From the IMG/VR virus record IMGVR_UViG_3300022752_000020, positions 95,921 to 159,920 of that record: a stretch of 64,000 nucleotides of DNA; one strand, written 5' to 3'. The position numbers were made by a program, and so were the translations under genes. This document shows, piece by piece, positions 41,757 through 56,353 of the stretch (the first letter of the stretch is position 1; each line of letters begins with the position of its first letter). The notes under the pieces are model-generated. The model did no database searches. It was not told the origin of the DNA and was given only the letters and a program-made list of their open reading frames with translations. This stretch comes from a virus.

Positions 41757-42530
41757 TTGAATATAGCATGGACAGGTCTAGCAGACTCTGTATATTATCA
41801 CTACATAGCAAAATATTGCTTACCTTCTTGGCAAACTTTACCAGGTAATAAATTTATAGTTCACGATGCAGCAGATATATCCTTGTCTAATATAGAAATT
41901 GTAGATTGGAACAAAATTTATAACAAAAATAATACTTTCACTAAGAAATATCAACGAACTAAGCCTTTAAATTTTTGGCGTAAGATGCAAAGCCAGATAT
42001 GGGCACTTAAAAGTCTTACCAACTATGATTTCGTTATCTTATTAGATACAGATGTAGAAATTACCGGTATTAATATGAATATTCTTAATGATACCTTCAG
42101 AGAGCTTAAAAATTCAAATTATATATGGGCCATAGGCCAGAGTCAGAAAAATAAGTTGGATGCTGGACATATTATAGTAAATATGAATCATCAGCAGGTG
42201 AAAAGATTGATTTTTGACTATGAAGAGGTTTGGGAAAGTGGTAAAATATTCGAATTTAGACGATTTTATGATGGTAATGCCATAGAGTACCTACAAGAAC
42301 ATTATCCTAGTATAAAAATTAATAATATTGACCATGGTGGAGGACTACATACTTATGAATTGGGAACTGTGCATTATGGTAGCAAATTTCCTAAAATATT
42401 AAGGGCTTTATACTCTGGAAATTACGAAAATATGGTTAATTTTATCATAAATGAAAAAAATAGGTTAATCCGTGAGCAAATTCCTATAGAAGAATTAGAA
42501 AAGAGAAAAAATGAAACAAATTACGTTTAA
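41757..42530 (+). CDS. Putative glycosyltransferase (GT-A-like)
   Basis: ILLDTD DxD motif; within the glycan cluster; AATAAATA box at 41730-41737. Confidence 0.5.
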   Translation: MNIAWTGLADSVYYHYIAKYCLPSWQTLPGNKFIVHDAADISLSNIEIVDWNKIYNKNNTFTKKYQRTKPLNFWRKMQSQIWALKSLTNYDFVILLDTDVEITGINMNILNDTFRELKNSNYIWAIGQSQKNKLDAGHIIVNMNHQQVKRLIFDYEEVWESGKIFEFRRFYDGNAIEYLQEHYPSIKINNIDHGGGLHTYELGTVHYGSKFPKILRALYSGNYENMVNFIINEKNRLIREQIPIEELEKRKNETNYV

Positions 42531-43338
42531 TAACTTTACTATAGACAATTCAAGTCCCATAAAGGTGATTGCAGGACCTTGCCAAATAGAAAGTAGAGAG
42601 CATGCCTATCAAATAGCCGCAGAATTACTAGATATTTGTAGAGACTTAGGTATGGACTTAATTTTTAAGAGTAGTTTTGATAAGGCCAATAGATCAAGCA
42701 TCAATGGACGTCGTGGAGTAGGTCTACATAAAGGATTGAGCATACTTAATGAAATAAAAACTAAATTAAGTGTGCCTGTACTAACAGATATACATGAAAA
42801 GGAACATGCCAAACTGGCACTAGCATATGAAATTGATGTTATTCAGATTCCTGCCTTTCTTTGTCGCCAAACTGACTTATTGATAGCAGCAGGTGGGACT
42901 GGATTGGTTATTAACGTGAAGAAAGGCCAATTCTTAGCCCCTCATGATATGAAAAATGTAGCAGAGAAGATAGCCAGTACTGGAAATCATAACATTATGT
43001 TATGTGAAAGAGGATATACTCATGGATATAACAATTTGGTGGTCGATATGCGTAGTTTGCCTATTATGGCCGGTACTGGTTACCCTGTCGTGTTCGATTG
43101 TACTCATTCAGTCCAACAGCCTGGAGGATTGGGTTCCTCTTCTGGCGGGGATCGCGGGATGGTCCCATATCTCGCCCGAGCAGCAGTAGCAACAGGCTGT
43201 TTAGCCGGCGTTTTCATCGAATGCCATGATGATCCAGACAACGCTCCCAGTGATGGACCTAACATGATTAAGATGGAAGATATGTCTAACCTACTGAAAA
43301 GCTTGAAAGAAATAGATGATCTTGTAAAAAAATTGTGA
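42511..43338 (+). CDS. kdsA: 3-deoxy-D-manno-octulosonate 8-phosphate synthase
   Basis: IAGPCQIES, KSSFDKANRSS, QIPAFLCRQTDLL, NVKKGQF, CERG, FDCTHSVQQPG, SDG. Confidence 0.95.
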   Translation: MKQITFNNFTIDNSSPIKVIAGPCQIESREHAYQIAAELLDICRDLGMDLIFKSSFDKANRSSINGRRGVGLHKGLSILNEIKTKLSVPVLTDIHEKEHAKLALAYEIDVIQIPAFLCRQTDLLIAAGGTGLVINVKKGQFLAPHDMKNVAEKIASTGNHNIMLCERGYTHGYNNLVVDMRSLPIMAGTGYPVVFDCTHSVQQPGGLGSSSGGDRGMVPYLARAAVATGCLAGVFIECHDDPDNAPSDGPNMIKMEDMSNLLKSLKEIDDLVKKL

Positions 43339-45929: not shown

Positions 45930-47114
45930 ATGAATACAGTTGATGATTTAATTTATTCTTTAAAACAAATAGGTTTCGATAATATCAATTCATCCATACC
46001 TCTTAAAGATAGAAAAATACTGAAAAATATATCATCTATGATGACTAAGGATTTGTATATTACGGAATCCCAATCTAATCTAGTATTAAAAATCTTAAAA
46101 GAAAATCAAGAACACTTAGGAAATTTTAAAGACTCTGTGCTAGAATTATTGGCAATGCCAATGTGGAAAAAAGAATTTAGAGTTAATGAAAAAATTCGTC
46201 AAATCTCACTAAAATACTCAAAAAATGAGGAAGCACAAATTCTAGTTGAATTTAGTTTTGATAAAGAAATCAAAAAAATATTGTCTATTATTAACTCTCA
46301 ATTGAAATATGAAAAGCATGATTTAAATAATAAAGGCTACATATACTCATTGTCAGAAAAAAATATAGTAACTTTATATGATCAGTTGTCCCCACTAAAA
46401 TTTAAGTTTTCCGATGATTTTTTGGAATTATATGAAAAAATTTCTAAACTTGATTTAAAACAAGTCCAAGAAAAATTTGAATTTGACCACCTTTATAAGA
46501 GTAAATTAGAACCAAATAATCATAAAATAGATACTACTAACCAGTTAATTGTTTTAGATCAAAAAATACGGTACCAGTACAATTTCAATGGTGAGTTTGA
46601 CGAAAATACAAAAAATAGTTTAGAATATAAGATAGCCAACAGAGTACAAAATAAAGTTTTTATCAATAGTAACATAGTCAATTTTAATACTCTTTTAACC
46701 GCACTGTCTAATCTTAGTAGAAATCGAATTTTGATAATTTTTGACGATTTTTCACCTATCAATAGTATACATTCAATTGAAAAATTGATAAAATTTTTAG
46801 AGTCAAATATTCAAGAATATAATACTGGAATTTATTTTAGATTTGATAACAAACAAGAAGGACTAGCATTTAACAAGATTATATCACAATATTCACTGAA
46901 TAAAAAATTAGATAACGATACTGACATAGTAGGTATTGGTAATGGAAAACTACCAAAATTCATGCTACACAGTAGTTGGTATCCAGATGCTGTAATCAGT
47001 TTTACCAATAGCCTTAGAAACAATAAATGTGATGTTTATTGTAATGACTGTGACCTGATAATTTATCATTTACCTGTAAAGCCATTAATATCAAATGTAC
47101 ATGAAATCCTGTAA
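45930..47114 (+). CDS. Hypothetical protein
   Basis: 394-aa ORF with its own promoter, overlapping the helicase start. Confidence 0.8.
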   Translation: MNTVDDLIYSLKQIGFDNINSSIPLKDRKILKNISSMMTKDLYITESQSNLVLKILKENQEHLGNFKDSVLELLAMPMWKKEFRVNEKIRQISLKYSKNEEAQILVEFSFDKEIKKILSIINSQLKYEKHDLNNKGYIYSLSEKNIVTLYDQLSPLKFKFSDDFLELYEKISKLDLKQVQEKFEFDHLYKSKLEPNNHKIDTTNQLIVLDQKIRYQYNFNGEFDENTKNSLEYKIANRVQNKVFINSNIVNFNTLLTALSNLSRNRILIIFDDFSPINSIHSIEKLIKFLESNIQEYNTGIYFRFDNKQEGLAFNKIISQYSLNKKLDNDTDIVGIGNGKLPKFMLHSSWYPDAVISFTNSLRNNKCDVYCNDCDLIIYHLPVKPLISNVHEIL

Positions 47115-48567
47115 ATTAATAATAAAAGATGAAGTAAACATTAAATTTGAGGGGTTGCCATTAGAAGCACGTCGTAAGTTAGCCAACACCTTCAAATATG
47201 TATTGCCCTATGCACGTTTCCAACCTGCTTACAAGTTAGGACGTTGGGATGGTACAACTAGCCTATTTGGTATTGGAGGATCAGGGTACTTAACACACAT
47301 AGAAAAAATACTTGGGGTATTGGATTCTATGGATATCGAAGTAACTGATATTGAAGATCACAGATCCAGTAAACAAATCAGTTTTACTCCGGTAACTGAA
47401 ACATATTGGGCTGATCAGGGTAAGGTATGGCCTAAAGGTCATCAACAAGAAGGTCAACCTATATTGCTACGTGACTATCAAGTAGATGCTATAAACAATT
47501 TCCTTCAATATCATCAAAGCCTACAAGAGATTGCTACTGGTGCTGGTAAAACTATTACCACTGCTACTTTAAGCCAACTATGTGAGCCATATGGAAGGAC
47601 TATCACCATAGTACCAAACAAAAGTCTAGTTGAACAAACTGAAGAAGATTTTCGTAATGTAGGATTGGATGTTGGTGTGTATTATGGTGATCGTAAAGAA
47701 TTAAATTGTACGCATACAATATGCACTTGGCAAAGTTTAAACATATTGGATAAAAAAAGTAAAAATGGAGAAACAGATCAACTTACATTGGCTGAATTTT
47801 TAGATGGGGTTACTGCTGTAATTGTTGACGAAGTACACATGGCCAAAGCAGAGGTATTGAAAAATTTGTTAACACGTAACCTAAATAATGCTTGTATACG
47901 TTGGGGCCTAACTGGAACTGTGCCTAAAGAACCTTATGAACATGAACAAATTTTCGCCAGTATCGGTCCACTAGTTGGTGGCATTAAAGCTAGTGAATTA
48001 CAAGAGCGAGGAGTCCTTAGTAATTGTCATGTGAACATTGTACAACTTGTTGACTTACCTGAATTTAAAAATTATGCAGATGAACTAAAGTATCTTGTTA
48101 CAGATGAAACTAGGATGATTTATATTAGCAAATTTATTAAGAATGTAGCAGAGAAAGGCAATACATTAGTATTAGTAAATAGAATTGACACAGGCAAATT
48201 TATAGTAAATGAATTAGAAGGCAGCGTATTCATATCAGGCAATGTAAAGACAAAAGATAGGAAAGAAGAATATGACGAAGTGGCAACGAGTCAAAATAAA
48301 GTCATCGTCGCAACCTACGGTGTGGCGGCAGTTGGCATCAATATTCCTCGCATTTTTAATTTGGTTCTTATTGAGTCTGGCAAGTCCTTTGTACGTGTTA
48401 TACAAAGCATTGGCAGGGGTATCCGTCGAGCGGAGGACAAAGACCATGTTGAAATCTGGGATGTAACCAGCACCTGTAAGTTCAGCAAACGACATCTTAC
48501 AGAACGTAAAAAATATTATAAGGAAGCCCAATATCCATTCAGTATTCAAAAAATGGACTGGCAATAA
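47101..48567 (+). CDS. SF2 DNA helicase (UvsW-like)
   Basis: LRDYQ, ATGAGKT, DEVH, GLTGT, GINIP, QSIGRGIR. Confidence 0.9.
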   Translation: MKSCKLIIKDEVNIKFEGLPLEARRKLANTFKYVLPYARFQPAYKLGRWDGTTSLFGIGGSGYLTHIEKILGVLDSMDIEVTDIEDHRSSKQISFTPVTETYWADQGKVWPKGHQQEGQPILLRDYQVDAINNFLQYHQSLQEIATGAGKTITTATLSQLCEPYGRTITIVPNKSLVEQTEEDFRNVGLDVGVYYGDRKELNCTHTICTWQSLNILDKKSKNGETDQLTLAEFLDGVTAVIVDEVHMAKAEVLKNLLTRNLNNACIRWGLTGTVPKEPYEHEQIFASIGPLVGGIKASELQERGVLSNCHVNIVQLVDLPEFKNYADELKYLVTDETRMIYISKFIKNVAEKGNTLVLVNRIDTGKFIVNELEGSVFISGNVKTKDRKEEYDEVATSQNKVIVATYGVAAVGINIPRIFNLVLIESGKSFVRVIQSIGRGIRRAEDKDHVEIWDVTSTCKFSKRHLTERKKYYKEAQYPFSIQKMDWQ

Positions 48568-48569
48568 TC

Positions 48570-49076
48570 ATGCAAATACTAACATTAGAAAACAAATTAT
48601 TCTCATTAAACAATTTACCAGACGAAGTAGATGAAAACACAAGATTCGCTGTATTAGACAATAGTGATCCAAAAAATCCAGACTTCTTCTTTGTACCATT
48701 GATATTTTTAGAAAGTTTTAACAGCCCAGCTATAGTGTTAAAAATAGGTGATCAAGAAATCAGTATGCCTATAGATTGGAGCATTGTTGTAGGAGATGGC
48801 ACTAGCAGTGTGGACGCTGAAATATTACCTCTAACTAGCCTAAATGATCGAGGATTTGATGCTGTAATTTTTAACCCTTTGAGCAGTTTCAAAATTGAAT
48901 ATAAGCCAATTGAGATTGTAAATTTTTATAATGATGTCAAATGGTATTTTCCTAAAATGCGTAATAACCATTTACTAGTAACTCCATTGAATTACGAAGA
49001 AAAGCCAGAATGTGCATTTTTTGTTAAAGAAGTAAGTAGGCAAAGTGAGCTGATTGATATTGGTAGGATTCTTTGA
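48570..49076 (+). CDS. Hypothetical protein
   Basis: 168-aa ORF in the operon. Confidence 0.75.
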   Translation: MQILTLENKLFSLNNLPDEVDENTRFAVLDNSDPKNPDFFFVPLIFLESFNSPAIVLKIGDQEISMPIDWSIVVGDGTSSVDAEILPLTSLNDRGFDAVIFNPLSSFKIEYKPIEIVNFYNDVKWYFPKMRNNHLLVTPLNYEEKPECAFFVKEVSRQSELIDIGRIL

Positions 49077-49303
49077 TGGGGGAGATTTTTGAAAGTCCAG
49101 ACGGTGGTCATACAGTATATGTAAGGAAACCTAATAGCACCGAAAGAGCTCTTGTCAGTATGGATCAATATGCTATAGATAGGAGAAATCAATTAGAATG
49201 GAATGAAATATGGTATAAAAAAGATTCCAACCCTGCTTTACAAAAGGCTGTTGAACGTGTTATAATGATCTATAGATTAGGTAAAGAAGATGGCAAAACT
49301 TGA
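49076..49303 (+). CDS. Hypothetical protein
   Basis: IFESPDGGHTVY motif; TGATG coupling. Confidence 0.7.
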   Translation: MGEIFESPDGGHTVYVRKPNSTERALVSMDQYAIDRRNQLEWNEIWYKKDSNPALQKAVERVIMIYRLGKEDGKT

Positions 49304-49754
49304 ATTAAAAGACATACTCAGTGCAGTAGATCAAGGCGGTAAAGACCTTTGGGATTTATTCACTGATGAACAAAAAAAGAGCGTAAGTTTCTTTTTATTG
49401 AACAGATATGTTAGTAGTGTAAAAACTAGTAAAAGAGAAGTTCAAGAACACTATGTATTATCAACAAACGAATTTTATAATAAACACTGGTCATTGTTTA
49501 ATAAACATCCTAAATTACTTTGGCAGTTATTGTGTTGTTGTGGATATGAAAATAAACAAGAATATTTTCATGAATGGATTGGTTTTAAAAAGAAAAAGGG
49601 CGAAACTAAAAAATTAAAATTTTTACAGGATATATATCCAGATAGAAAACTGTGTGACCTAGAAATCCTAGCTGAAATCAATGGTGTGAAAGAACTTAAA
49701 AATTTAGCTAAAGACTTAGGTTGGGACGATTCACAAATTCAAAAATATTTTTAA
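49290..49754 (+). CDS. Clamp-loader small subunit-like protein (gp62-like)
   Basis: FLLNRYVS...N...LWQLL...HEWIGFKKK pattern; in the replication block. Confidence 0.55.
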   Translation: MAKLELKDILSAVDQGGKDLWDLFTDEQKKSVSFFLLNRYVSSVKTSKREVQEHYVLSTNEFYNKHWSLFNKHPKLLWQLLCCCGYENKQEYFHEWIGFKKKKGETKKLKFLQDIYPDRKLCDLEILAEINGVKELKNLAKDLGWDDSQIQKYF

Positions 49755-50434
49755 TGAATCAAGCATTTATTTGTAATCATTGTCAAAGTAAATTTACTAA
49801 GGAAAAAACTTTGATGGTGCATATGTGTGAACAAAAAAGACGCCATTTTGCTAAAAATGAAAAACATGTACAAATGGGCTTTCTAAGCTATTGTAGATTT
49901 TACAAATTATCACAGAAATTTGAAGGACAAAAAAGTTATGATGATTTTGCTAGAAGCCAATATTATAACGCTTTTGTTAAATTTGGTAGCTTTCTACACA
50001 ATGTAAATCCTTTGTATCCAGAATATTTTATTGATTATGTAGTGGTCAGTGGAGTAAAACTTGATCACTGGTGTAATGAAAAATTATATGAATCCTATGT
50101 TCTTGAACTAATAAAAAACGAAAGTGTAGAAACTGCACTGCAAAGAAGCATAGCTACTATGATGGATTGGGCAGATGATCATAGTAGCATATGGAATCAT
50201 TATTTTCTATACGCTAGCCCGACTAGAGCTACCTTTGATATTAAAGATGGAAAAGTGAGTCCTTGGCTATTGTTAAATAGTACTGGTGGTAGAAAATTAT
50301 TAACACAATTTAGCGATGAACAGTTAGCAGAACTCAGTAATACTATAGATCCAGAATTTTGGGTTAAAAAGTTTCGTTCAAACTCAGATGATCTTGATCT
50401 AGTCAAACATGTTGTAAAGGAACATAACTTATGA
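49754..50434 (+). CDS. Hypothetical protein with N-terminal zinc finger
   Basis: CNHC..KF....TL..HMC; ATG at 49754 in a TAATG overlap. Confidence 0.7.
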   Translation: MNQAFICNHCQSKFTKEKTLMVHMCEQKRRHFAKNEKHVQMGFLSYCRFYKLSQKFEGQKSYDDFARSQYYNAFVKFGSFLHNVNPLYPEYFIDYVVVSGVKLDHWCNEKLYESYVLELIKNESVETALQRSIATMMDWADDHSSIWNHYFLYASPTRATFDIKDGKVSPWLLLNSTGGRKLLTQFSDEQLAELSNTIDPEFWVKKFRSNSDDLDLVKHVVKEHNL

Positions 50435-50607
50435 GTACTGAAGTAAAAGAAATACCATTAGACATAGAAGTTAGGCTAGTCGAAGAAGATAAGGCAGTTT
50501 ACGTACAGTTCACTGGTTTTGAAACTGTAGAGGATGCTAAGGAATATACTGAATTTTTGGCAGATAATTTACCATTACTAATGTTTAACAGTGAGGTCAA
50601 GCACTGA
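50431..50607 (+). CDS. Small acidic protein, 58 aa (not in the ORF track)
   Basis: MSTEVKEIPLDIEV...FNSEVKH; ATGA and TGATG overlaps fill the gap exactly. Confidence 0.7.
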   Translation: MSTEVKEIPLDIEVRLVEEDKAVYVQFTGFETVEDAKEYTEFLADNLPLLMFNSEVKH

Positions 50608-51185
50608 TGCCTGACATCGACATCGATTTTGCCAATAGAGATCAAGCACTAAATTTGATACCTCATATCAAGGCAAGACGTGAAGGACCTGATGGGGTAG
50701 CTGTACATAATACAGGTATATATGTTCAAAGTATACCTTATGACCCTTTGACAAAAATAGCAGGCATAGAATACAAACAAGCCGAACAACGTGGCTATTT
50801 TAAAATAGATTTTCTCAATGTTAACATCTACAAAGATGTACAAAATGAAGCTCATTTAACACAATTAATGGAGACAGAACCACTATGGGAACTATTACTA
50901 CAAGACGAGTTTACGGATCTACTATTTCATTTGAAAGGGCATGGGACTATTCTGAAGAAGACCCAACCTACTTCCGTGGAACAATTAGCTGCCGTCCTCG
51001 CTATGATCCGACCATCCAAGAGGCACTTGATTGGAAAATCATGGCCCGAGATCATGATGGAAGTTTGGACGAAACCAGAGAATGACGAGTATTATTTTAA
51101 GAAGCCACATGCTGTAGCCTATGCTATGGCTGTAGTAGTACAGATGAATTTAATTTGTGAAAGCTTGAGTTATGATTATAGTTAG
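50607..51185 (+). CDS. Miniature DNA polymerase III alpha (DnaE)-like protein
   Basis: PDIDIDF, HNTGIY, FKIDFL, AMIRP and YYFKKPHAVAYA match the DnaE palm and finger motifs in order. Confidence 0.8.
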   Translation: MPDIDIDFANRDQALNLIPHIKARREGPDGVAVHNTGIYVQSIPYDPLTKIAGIEYKQAEQRGYFKIDFLNVNIYKDVQNEAHLTQLMETEPLWELLLQDEFTDLLFHLKGHGTILKKTQPTSVEQLAAVLAMIRPSKRHLIGKSWPEIMMEVWTKPENDEYYFKKPHAVAYAMAVVVQMNLICESLSYDYS

Positions 51186-51556
51186 ATCTTTCTAACTAAT
51201 TCAACACTACGACGTTTAGCTCTTTTTAAACTCATATTAAGTAAGTTTACTGTGGGACCTAATACTATACGAACACCTTTACTATTGAAAGTTTTAATAC
51301 AATATTTGAATATATCTATCTCAGCTTTCAAAAATATATTGATGGGTATTTGACGATTACTTTCCCACCACCAAGTTTCGCCCATCAGAATGAATTGATT
51401 TTTTTCTTCTGGTGTTCGTATAGCATCAATATCGTAGAAAGTTGTAACAAATTGATCTTGATTAATTATGATCCCAACATATTCCTGCTCACCATAGTTT
51501 AACACGCTGATAAAGGGTAATTGCTCTTTTGTTGTATCTCTTAGCTTTTTAGCCAT
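51182..51556 (-). CDS. Hypothetical protein
   Basis: 124-aa ORF with WWWESNRQIPINIFL. Confidence 0.7.
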   Translation of the reverse strand: MAKKLRDTTKEQLPFISVLNYGEQEYVGIIINQDQFVTTFYDIDAIRTPEEKNQFILMGETWWWESNRQIPINIFLKAEIDIFKYCIKTFNSKGVRIVLGPTVNLLNMSLKRAKRRSVELVRKI

Positions 51557-52402: not shown

Positions 52403-53374
52403 ATGAACCTTATTGCTGATACTATATTAAGTCATTTACCTTACAGTCGAAAGACCACTCCAAGTGGATGGATCAGCTTTAATGCTATTTGTTGTAGTGA
52501 TCGTCGTAATAGAGGCGGCTTCATTATAGATGGGGAAAGTTTAAGTTACCACTGTTTTAACTGTGGATTTAAGGCAAGTTGGCAACCAGGGCGTAGTATT
52601 AGTGTAAAAATGAGACAGTTGCTACAATTATTATCAGTACCAACAGATATAATCAGTAAAATATATATTGAAGCAATGCGTCTTAAAGATACAGAAATAG
52701 TTGAACAAGAATTACATGTTCCAAAGTTTGTACCTAAGACATTACCCAGAGGTAGCAAACGAATCATTGATTTACTTGATGACCCAAGCGACCAATTAAT
52801 ATCAGTGATAGAATATATATACAGTAGAGCTTTGACCTTAGAGGACTATGATTTTTATTGGAGTTCAGAAGAAGGTTTTGACAATAGATTAATTATTCCC
52901 TATTACTTTAGAAATCAAATTGTAGGATATACCTGTAGAAGAATTGATGAAGGTAAGGCAAAATATCTAGCAGAGCAACAACCAGGTTATGTGTTCAATT
53001 TAGATCGTCAAAATTATCATAGACAATTTATTATTGTTTGTGAAGGGCAGTTTGATGCTATTAGTATAGATGGAGTTGCTGTAATGAGTAACGAAATCAA
53101 TAAACAACAAAGTATGTTAATTAATCAATTAGGTAAAAAAGTTGTTGTTGTTCCTGATAGAGATCAAGCAGGTTTAAAAATTATAGAAAGTGCATTAGAC
53201 AATAATTATAAGGTAAGTATGCCAGATTGGGATAATGATATAAAAGATATTAACGATGCAGTTAAATATTATGGCAAACTAAAAACTCTTTTGATTATTA
53301 AAAATGCAATATTAGAAAGTGAATTAAAAATTAAACTTAGGAGCAGAGAATGGTTAAAATCTTTAGAATTTTGA
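52403..53374 (+). CDS. DNA primase (gp61-like)
   Basis: Zinc-binding CC...YHCFNCG, RLIIPYY, TOPRIM CEGQFDA and PDRD, KDIND. Confidence 0.9.
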   Translation: MNLIADTILSHLPYSRKTTPSGWISFNAICCSDRRNRGGFIIDGESLSYHCFNCGFKASWQPGRSISVKMRQLLQLLSVPTDIISKIYIEAMRLKDTEIVEQELHVPKFVPKTLPRGSKRIIDLLDDPSDQLISVIEYIYSRALTLEDYDFYWSSEEGFDNRLIIPYYFRNQIVGYTCRRIDEGKAKYLAEQQPGYVFNLDRQNYHRQFIIVCEGQFDAISIDGVAVMSNEINKQQSMLINQLGKKVVVVPDRDQAGLKIIESALDNNYKVSMPDWDNDIKDINDAVKYYGKLKTLLIIKNAILESELKIKLRSREWLKSLEF

Positions 53375-54940: not shown

Positions 54941-56353
54941 ATGACTAGACAAAATGCTGATTATGGATACGACATCCAAAAAATTTATTTAGAACTTATG
55001 CTTAATGACAGCGAAACATTTGTTAGATGTCAAAGCATATTCGATCACGAACTTTTTGATCGACGATTACAACCTACAGCAAAATTTATCAATGACTATG
55101 TGGTAGAACATAATATTCTTCCAACATTTGAAATTGTTAACGCTGCAACTAAAAGTAACTTGGTAAATCCTGGTACTATTAGAATAGAACACTATGATTG
55201 GCTACTACAAGACTTTGAAACCTTTATTAGACATAAGGGACTTGAAAGAGCCATTATCCAAAGTGCAGACTTGTTGGAGAAAGGTGAATATGGCCCAGTA
55301 GAAGATCTAATTAAACGAGCAGTTCAAATTGGTCTACAGAAGGACATGGGCACTGACTACTTTTTAGATCCTAGAAGTAGGCTAATGAGTATTAAAGATA
55401 AAAATGGTCAAGTTAGCACAGGATGGACTGCTCTTGATCAAAGACTATTTGGTGGATTTAATAGAGGTGAACTTAATATCTTCGCTGGTGGTAGTGGAGC
55501 CGGTAAAAGTTTATTCCTAGCCAATCTCGGACTTAATTGGTCTATAGCAGGTCTTAATGTACTTTATGTAACATTGGAACTTAGTGAAGAACTTGTTAGT
55601 ATGCGTATTGATAGTATGGTGACAGATATACCAACTAAGGAAATTTTTAAACAAATTGACGAAGTTGAAATGCGTGTAAGAATAATAGGTAAGAAGAGTG
55701 GTAGTTATCAAATTAAGTATATGCCCAGCGGTAAAACTGCTAACGATATACGTAGCTATATGAAGGAGTTTGAAGTAAAGGCTGGACGTAAGATTGATAT
55801 CTTGCTAGTAGACTACTTAGATCTATTGATGCCTATGAGTCGTAAGATCAGTGCAGAAAATTTGTTTATCAAAGATAAATTTGTCAGTGAAGAACTTAGA
55901 AACTTGGCTGTAGAAAAGAATGTAGTACTAGTAACTGCTGCTCAATTGAACAGAGGAGCAGTTGAAGAAATTGAGTTTGATCATAGTCATATCAGTGGAG
56001 GACTCAGCAAGATTCAAACTGCTGACAATGTATTTGGTATCTTTACTAGTCGTGGTATGAGGGAAAAAGGTAGATATCAAATTCAATTGATGAAAACTCG
56101 TAGCAGTAGCGGAGTAGGTACTAAAATTGATCTTGAATTTGATATGGATACTCTACGTATTAGAGATCTTAAAGAAGAGGACATGGGTACTGAATATAAA
56201 CCGGGCAGTACAGTATTAGATACTATACGTCAACGTAGTGCTACAGTAAGAGAAGATCCCACAGAAGGTTCAAGCTTGAAGACTAGTCGAGTTGATGTAC
56301 AGACTACTAAACTTAGGCAACTACTTAATAACTTGAATACCGAAGACCTATAA
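54941..56353 (+). CDS. Replicative DNA helicase (gp41/DnaB-like)
   Basis: GGSGAGKS, TLELSE, VDYLDL, AAQLNR, TAD, MKTR. Confidence 0.92.
   Translation: MTRQNADYGYDIQKIYLELMLNDSETFVRCQSIFDHELFDRRLQPTAKFINDYVVEHNILPTFEIVNAATKSNLVNPGTIRIEHYDWLLQDFETFIRHKGLERAIIQSADLLEKGEYGPVEDLIKRAVQIGLQKDMGTDYFLDPRSRLMSIKDKNGQVSTGWTALDQRLFGGFNRGELNIFAGGSGAGKSLFLANLGLNWSIAGLNVLYVTLELSEELVSMRIDSMVTDIPTKEIFKQIDEVEMRVRIIGKKSGSYQIKYMPSGKTANDIRSYMKEFEVKAGRKIDILLVDYLDLLMPMSRKISAENLFIKDKFVSEELRNLAVEKNVVLVTAAQLNRGAVEEIEFDHSHISGGLSKIQTADNVFGIFTSRGMREKGRYQIQLMKTRSSSGVGTKIDLEFDMDTLRIRDLKEEDMGTEYKPGSTVLDTIRQRSATVREDPTEGSSLKTSRVDVQTTKLRQLLNNLNTEDL

Follow-up and report, generated by a model that had tools for sequence, protein, structure and literature searches.

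We analyzed a gene encoding a 192-amino acid (aa) protein in a 64,000-nucleotide stretch of viral DNA (the window; positions 95,921 to 159,920 of IMG/VR record IMGVR_UViG_3300022752_000020), which forms the final 64 kb of a 159,920-bp viral contig with a CheckV completeness of 45%. The open reading frame (ORF) at 50607-51185 of the window lies within a T4-like replication block, as recognized by Pfam, PHROGs and the ORF list. We assign its product, with high confidence, to the C-terminal unit of a minimal DNA polymerase III (Pol III) alpha subunit that is divided over two genes in the T4-like group 2.2 of giant phages. The gene is real and conserved, but its family has been known since 2021, when comparative genomics of group 2.2 jumbo phages revealed a split minimal Pol III alpha (Iyer, Anantharaman, Krishnan, Burroughs and Aravind 2021, Viruses 13:63, PMC7824862, section 3.4.1). 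The window adds one further member of this family, from a lake phage, and no new kind of system.

The ORF encodes a reduced C-family polymerase palm

The ORF is intact and starts with MPDIDIDF, preceded by four in-frame codons and then a stop codon. An earlier note on this DNA had read it as a collapsed DnaE that begins at PDIDIDF and continues with HNTG, KIDFL, AMIRP and YYFKKPHAVAY in the correct order. All of these motifs were confirmed in the order known from DnaE, at H34-N-T-G37, K66-I-D68-F-L70, A132-M-I-R135-P136 and Y162-Y-F-K-K-P-H168-A-V-A-Y172. The catalytic residues of the 192-aa protein are D3, D5 and D68, while R135-P136, K165-K166-x-H168 and Y172 belong to reduced fingers. The PHP, GRGS, clamp-binding and OB regions are missing from the ORF, as the note had stated, and so is the thumb. 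The regions between the motifs are shortened, as it had also claimed: E. coli alpha 404-538, a stretch of ~135 residues that contains the thumb, is represented by ~47 residues, and the ~97 residues of the fingers at 642-738 by ~10.

The protein matched phrog_11778 ("DNA polymerase") over its whole length (E 6.2e-69; residues 3-186 against profile positions 8-194 of 197). The DnaE profile phrog_405 gave three weak, collinear matches at positions 442-454, 578-678 and 773-809, and Pfam yielded only a sub-threshold match to the fingers. When the PDB was searched with the single sequence, four DnaE chains ranked first, again in three collinear pieces; with a family profile of 82 diverse homologues, the top nine hits were DnaE chains (E 7e-6 to 8e-5). 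In the profile alignment, K66-x-D68 corresponds to E. coli K553-F-D555 and F-K-K-x-H168 to F756-N-K758-S-H760, which places K166 and H168 on K758 and H760.

Structure comparison gave the same relatives. The AlphaFold2 model of the 192-aa protein has a predicted local distance difference test score (pLDDT) of 96.4 and a predicted template modelling score (pTM) of 0.89, and the top 17 Foldseek hits to it were all C-family polymerases. A VIA search, which is independent of Foldseek, also returned C-family polymerases in the top seven places (Z 9.5-6.3), including PolC 3F2B (9.5), M. tuberculosis DnaE1 (9.4), Taq alpha (9.1) and E. coli alpha (7.7), with the next unrelated chain at 4.1. The match to E. 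coli alpha comprises 187 aligned residues and spans its positions 401-781, with nothing corresponding beyond ~781. The resemblance to DnaE is not due to chance, and the protein is a Pol-beta-type palm with three catalytic aspartates, homologous to DnaE and PolC by sequence and fold.

Compared with characterized DnaE and PolC structures (E. coli alpha 2HNH/5FKU, Taq 2HPI/3E0D, M. tuberculosis DnaE1 5LEW, G. kaustophilus PolC 3F2B), the palm strands bearing the Asp triad are homologous, as is the initial part of the fingers, and 185-187 of the 192 residues superpose with Z 7.4-9.5. However, the phage protein has ~190 aa versus 1,100-1,450, half of the palm, with the GS motif, is located on another polypeptide (as seen in relatives), and no PHP, clamp-binding, HhH, OB or tau-binding part is present.

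The gene is widespread and under purifying selection

Homologues were detected by tblastn in 96 isolate phages, nearly all of them jumbo phages, and these isolates share the gene order. Identity to any isolate does not exceed 54%, with 52-54% for Atu_ph07 and Phosso, 46% for PA5oct and ~39% for the Rak2/121Q group. Closer homologues (62-83% identity) were carried by >537 IMG/VR contigs, and a full HMMER scan yielded 406 clusters at 50% identity, nearly all of ~190 aa. Among 74 distinct sequences from related loci, D3, D5, D7, H34, K66, D68, R135, P136, K165, H168 and Y172 were invariant or nearly so, and D3, D5, K66, D68 and P136 were invariant in 82 representatives at 31-61% identity. The catalytic aspartates thus show no decay across either set of homologues. 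The ratio of nonsynonymous to synonymous substitutions (dN/dS) had a median of 0.157 (pairwise Nei-Gojobori, 186 unsaturated pairs) and was ~0.17 between the gene in the window and its two nearest relatives, which indicates purifying selection. Both of these checks had been proposed in the earlier note.

These data bear directly on the idea that the ORF has no function and is what remains of a decaying full-length dnaE gene from a phage or host. Such an origin would fit the coverage of less than one fifth of a normal DnaE and the loss of two large internal stretches compared with E. coli alpha. However, the length and boundaries of the protein are constant over hundreds of genomes that include lake phages and coliphages alike, and in addition to the invariant catalytic residues and the low dN/dS, a compact fold is predicted confidently and the start codon is translationally coupled and accompanied by a Shine-Dalgarno-like sequence. 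The remnant explanation is effectively refuted.

Relatives encode the other half of the palm in a distant gene

The earlier note had proposed that the protein is half of a minimal C-family polymerase that is naturally split. This is supported by the family match, the fold and the presence of a partner in relatives, and it had already been published. The two units have been described as an N-terminal subdomain that binds nucleoside triphosphates and a C-terminal subdomain that binds Mg2+ and the template (PMC7824862); we refer to them as the N-unit and the C-unit. The separate GxGRGS gene that the note had anticipated was found in relatives (Phosso, 121Q and the environmental genomes G001, G003 and G004), but not on the 159,920-bp contig itself.

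In the complete genomes of Phosso and 121Q, the DnaE profile detected a second small ORF each (177 and 180 aa), which covers profile positions ~360-436 and ends with ...WG[VL]GRGSSVASY...[ED]FL[NK]. This N-unit corresponds to phrog_11127 and matches Pfam DNA_pol3_alpha (PF07733) at positions 19-94. Environmental N-units of 161-168 aa were present in the three longest relatives carrying one, namely G001 (364,554 bp, 100% complete), G003 and G004. Overall, the N-unit of relatives has 161-180 aa and is encoded by a separate gene 30-220 kb from the C-unit gene. It ends with ...WGVGRGSSVASY...EFLR, just short of where the C-unit begins. Given that the N-unit ends at DnaE profile position 436 and the C-unit starts at 442, the two halves abut on the DnaE sequence, at a junction that separates the GS helix from the DxD strand.

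The two units occur in nearly equal numbers in isolate phages when counted by genus (C-unit/N-unit: Escherichia 34/34, Pseudomonas 11/11, Klebsiella 11/10, Erwinia 8/8, Salmonella 8/8, Xanthomonas 4/4). The N-unit family is also very abundant in metagenomes, where it is annotated as Pol III alpha by the sources. Both units are present, in the usual local gene order, in Alishewanella phage vB_AspM_Slickus01 (L097, OQ508957.1, 141,644 bp), with the C-unit at ~68.4 kb and the N-unit at ~79.8 kb. As this phage, at 142 kb, falls below the jumbo size class, the family is not restricted to jumbo phages.

The gene in the window shares with the published split Pol III alpha of group 2.2 the whole-length profile match, the size, the start at the DxD strand, and the gene order of UvsW helicase ... 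zinc-finger gene, polymerase unit, convergent small gene, structural gene, primase and DnaB. Its relatives likewise hold a family-B polymerase (PolB) and no other Pol III domain: PolB was full-length in the four relatives tested (ORFs of 890-1013 aa), and no PHP domain was found anywhere in four related genomes. The present copy differs in that it stems from an uncultured AT-rich lake phage, is only distantly similar to the isolates (at most the 54% given above) and has no partner on the sequenced fragment.

Natural fusions join the two halves in one chain

A profile search identified a metagenome protein of 375 aa (P0098) whose residues 190-371 match the C-unit. Searching from this protein retrieved two further proteins of 376 aa (P0272 and P0273), which are 78-81% identical to it and come from independent assemblies; the three represent independent clusters, and all of their contigs are short (2.4-5.9 kb). 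Iyer et al. describe the split form only, and the single-chain fusions are an addition of the present analysis. N-units align to the first half of P0098 and C-units to the second, with a linker of ~10 residues between them (...EFIKDNKEGIYNIADFDID...), and a single Pfam DNA_pol3_alpha match (positions 12-121) spans the junction. A word-based search among longer proteins revealed no fused forms close to the window protein. These rare natural fusions support, at the level of sequence, that the two units would constitute one single enzyme.

The linker is also informative about how the halves might be joined where they are encoded separately. The gene dnaE is the classic case of a gene split over two distant loci, as known from the split intein of Synechocystis DnaE, and the phage halves might similarly be ligated post-translationally by protein trans-splicing. 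In cyanobacteria, the halves of a split intein ligate the two full-size proteins that carry them, DnaE-N and DnaE-C, into a single chain. Both systems derive a C-family polymerase from two distant genes, but the cyanobacterial protein is split elsewhere, whereas the break in the phage proteins lies within the palm and no intein sequences are present. The C-unit starts with M-P-D-I-D, preceded by a few extra residues at most, and the N-units end with ...EFL[RNK] right after the helix homologous to DnaE, which leaves no space for an N-intein of ~100 residues or a C-intein of ~35 residues. Moreover, the natural fusions use a plain linker of ~10 residues. We therefore regard trans-splicing as extremely improbable.

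The two units may form an accessory polymerase

The C-unit constitutes the latter half of a nucleotidyltransferase palm of the Pol-beta type and consists of the D3-x-D5 strand, a short beta-hairpin region and the K66-x-D68 strand. The hairpin region stands in for the thumb of ~100 residues, and a cut-down fingers module following the palm strands retains the invariant R135-P136 and F-K-K-x-H168...Y172. In the proposed mechanism, the split would interrupt the minimal nucleotidyltransferase fold after the GS helix and before the DxD strand. In Pol-beta-type nucleotidyltransferases, binding of the nucleotide and two metal ions requires the GS motif to meet the Asp strands. Consequently, the two proteins should form an obligate non-covalent heterodimer and, with the split located inside the fold, each half alone should be inactive. 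As no inteins are present, the halves would associate non-covalently and together build a single two-metal-ion active site.

Several observations weigh against this assignment or limit it. No N-unit was found on the 159,920-bp contig (45% complete) by motif regular expression, protein query or phrog_11127 profile, and none was found in the relative G002, which is 79% complete. The fold model of the fusion P0098, computed as a stand-in for a co-fold of the two units, had a pLDDT of 66.5 with values below 50 in the palm and was left unused. The literature yielded no biochemical or genetic study of any member of the mini Pol III family. The assembly of the two halves is what we infer from the data above, and the same holds for polymerase activity, template dependence and biological role.

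PolB was also missing from the 159,920-bp contig. A gene-by-gene comparison equates the contig with ~6.6-130 kb of G001, including an inversion of ~103 kb. In G001, the N-unit is located at 191.9 kb and PolB at ~167 kb, both beyond the range matched by the contig. As synteny places both loci outside the assembled part, we attribute their absence to the incomplete assembly, and the N-unit of the present phage would be expected in the portion of its genome that has yet to be sequenced. The inverted block comprises 25.7-128.5 kb of G001, with window positions 40-59 kb corresponding to the inverted replication block, and the inversion places the replication module directly after tail and baseplate genes.

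With regard to function, a role of the split enzyme in the synthesis of one strand or in repair has been suggested, and the enzyme was regarded as a model of the ancestral C-family polymerase (PMC7824862). Considering that the thumb, the PHP proofreader, and the clamp-binding and OB regions are missing and that PolB is present, the two-piece enzyme is most likely an accessory polymerase of low processivity and not the main replicase. At the T4-like replisome, it may extend primers, fill gaps or take part in repair as a template-dependent DNA polymerase. This proposal is based on the missing modules and on the fixed place of the gene beside primase and helicases. As for the activity itself, we lean slightly towards templated DNA synthesis.

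The same missing modules could also be read differently. Neither a thumb nor a clamp-binding region nor HhH/OB DNA-binding modules are present, a full PolB already covers replication, and the literature search gave no activity measurements. The split enzyme could thus be a nucleotidyltransferase that performs no templated DNA synthesis and instead makes untemplated tails, a nucleotide signal or a modified nucleotide, like other Pol-beta-fold enzymes. However, the retained fingers keep the invariant RP and F-K-K-x-H...Y residues, whose retention is difficult to account for unless the substrate geometry resembles that of DnaE. Furthermore, every relative examined has the gene in a conserved block together with the UvsW helicase, primase and DnaB helicase, and the nearest structures are all replicative polymerases. 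We consider a purely non-templated activity improbable.

Slightly less improbable, yet still doubtful, is that the two-piece mini Pol III is a dedicated enzyme of the replication fork and not a back-up polymerase, either extending primers between primase and PolB in a hand-off like that of Pol alpha, or acting as an untemplated or signalling nucleotidyltransferase. In this reading, it may also retain the minimal ancestral form of C-family polymerases, as proposed by Iyer et al., and no C-family polymerase core smaller than the fusions of ~375 aa would be available for biochemistry.

An accessory polymerase of this kind would differ from the C-family enzymes of other phages. The jumbo phages of group 3.2, such as Bacillus phage G, and many Bacillus and Clostridium phages encode full-length DnaE-type polymerases, which are host-like single proteins with PHP and serve as the main phage replicase (PMC7824862). 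These proteins have a phage C-family catalytic core in common with the mini version and are detected by the N-unit query. Unlike these main replicases, the mini version accompanies PolB.

No version of the bacterial replicative polymerase core smaller than this family is known. Mini Pol III is split within its catalytic fold and coexists with a PolB of the archaeo-eukaryotic type in giant phages, which makes it of interest for what a minimal C-family active site can do and for why a T4-like replisome keeps a second polymerase. To the published description, the present analysis adds the natural single-chain fusions, the presence in a non-jumbo phage of 142 kb and the great metagenomic abundance of the family.

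The C-unit gene is embedded in a conserved replication block

The features of the locus are listed in Table 1. The UvsW-type helicase gene is the upstream edge of the conserved replication block. Downstream of the polymerase unit, the gene order continues with the convergent 124-aa gene, a putative structural gene, the Toprim primase, a carbamoyltransferase-like gene and the DnaB-like helicase.

Table 1 Features of the replication locus, with positions in the window
Feature	Position	Strand	Length	Basis or remark
DAHP-synthase-family (KdsA-like) gene	42511-43338	+		Pfam E 1.7e-68
UvsW-type superfamily 2 (SF2) helicase	47095..48567	+		Pfam ResIII/DEAD/Helicase_C and phrog_16; same position in 121Q
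Conserved genes between helicase and polymerase unit	48570-50434	+	168 aa, 76 aa, 154 aa, 237 aa	phrog_11279 (168 aa), phrog_11758 (154 aa), phrog_11058 (237-aa zinc-finger protein)
Zinc-finger-like protein	49721..50434	+	237 aa	CxxC...HxxxC near N-terminus; phrog_11058, E 7e-60
Acidic ORF	50431..50607	+	58 aa	14 D/E versus 5 K/R
C-terminal (Mg2+-binding, template-binding) unit of split minimal DNA Pol III alpha	50607..51185	+	192 aa	
Convergent conserved gene	51182..51556	-	124 aa	phrog_11637, E 2.5e-32
Toprim DNA primase	52403..53374	+		Toprim_2 and phrog_47, E 1.7e-45; two genes downstream
DnaB/gp41-like replicative helicase	54941..56353	+		Syntenic gene annotated DnaB-like or gp41-like in Phosso and 121Q

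The order of the four genes between the UvsW helicase and the polymerase unit is kept across group 2.2 phages, and they are candidates for replisome accessory factors. Together with the convergent 124-aa gene, the zinc-finger, 154-aa and 168-aa genes are syntenic neighbours conserved throughout the group. A Hint/intein-like domain suspected from the sequence of the 168-aa ORF was dropped after Pfam, a PDB sequence search and the Atlas gave no support. The true start of the zinc-finger ORF may be the Met at residue 12. Homologues of its product were present at 89 loci, including those of Phosso, PA5oct, Atu_ph07, 121Q and RsoM2USA, and its Atlas clusters consist of viral hypothetical proteins, of which a minority are annotated as C2H2.

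The earlier note had further described the polymerase unit as coupled to a 58-aa acidic ORF and a zinc-finger gene, and the corresponding overlaps were seen. An ATGA overlap joins the zinc-finger ORF to the 58-aa ORF, whose TGA stop overlaps the ATG of the polymerase unit (TGATG); a GAGG sequence is located ~10 nt upstream. Through these overlaps, the three genes are translationally coupled. The 58-aa ORF has homologues in 46 related lake-phage loci (40-66% identity), with a conserved C-terminus LPLLLFESEVxH. In other relatives its slot is occupied by an unrelated small ORF with a TKCPxKW...ETGEVY motif or is empty, and in PA5oct the zinc-finger gene directly abuts the polymerase unit. Given that homologues occur only in part of the relatives and that the slot is variable, the 58-aa ORF is a real but lineage-specific gene and no conserved subunit.

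On the downstream side, the stops of the 124-aa gene and the polymerase unit overlap by 4 nt. The 124-aa gene occupies the same position on the opposite strand in Phosso, 121Q, Atu_ph07, PA5oct and Slickus01, and the synteny of the primase is repeated in Phosso, 121Q and PA5oct. The DnaB/gp41-like helicase is 77% identical to its orthologue in G001, its identity being taken from synteny and annotation.

At its extreme C-terminus (window 51150-51185), the polymerase unit of the lake clade carries the tail [ILV]-S-Y-[GED]-[YF]-S. This tail was rejected as a general clamp-binding motif, as it is kept in the lake clade only and not family-wide. The PA5oct homologue ends with ...DPFKLFS, which, speculatively, resembles a clamp-binding tail.

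Megablast of 10 kb against isolate phages revealed no near-identical isolate. Upstream of the conserved block, the DAHP-synthase-family gene is located between the tail-fibre genes and the replication block.

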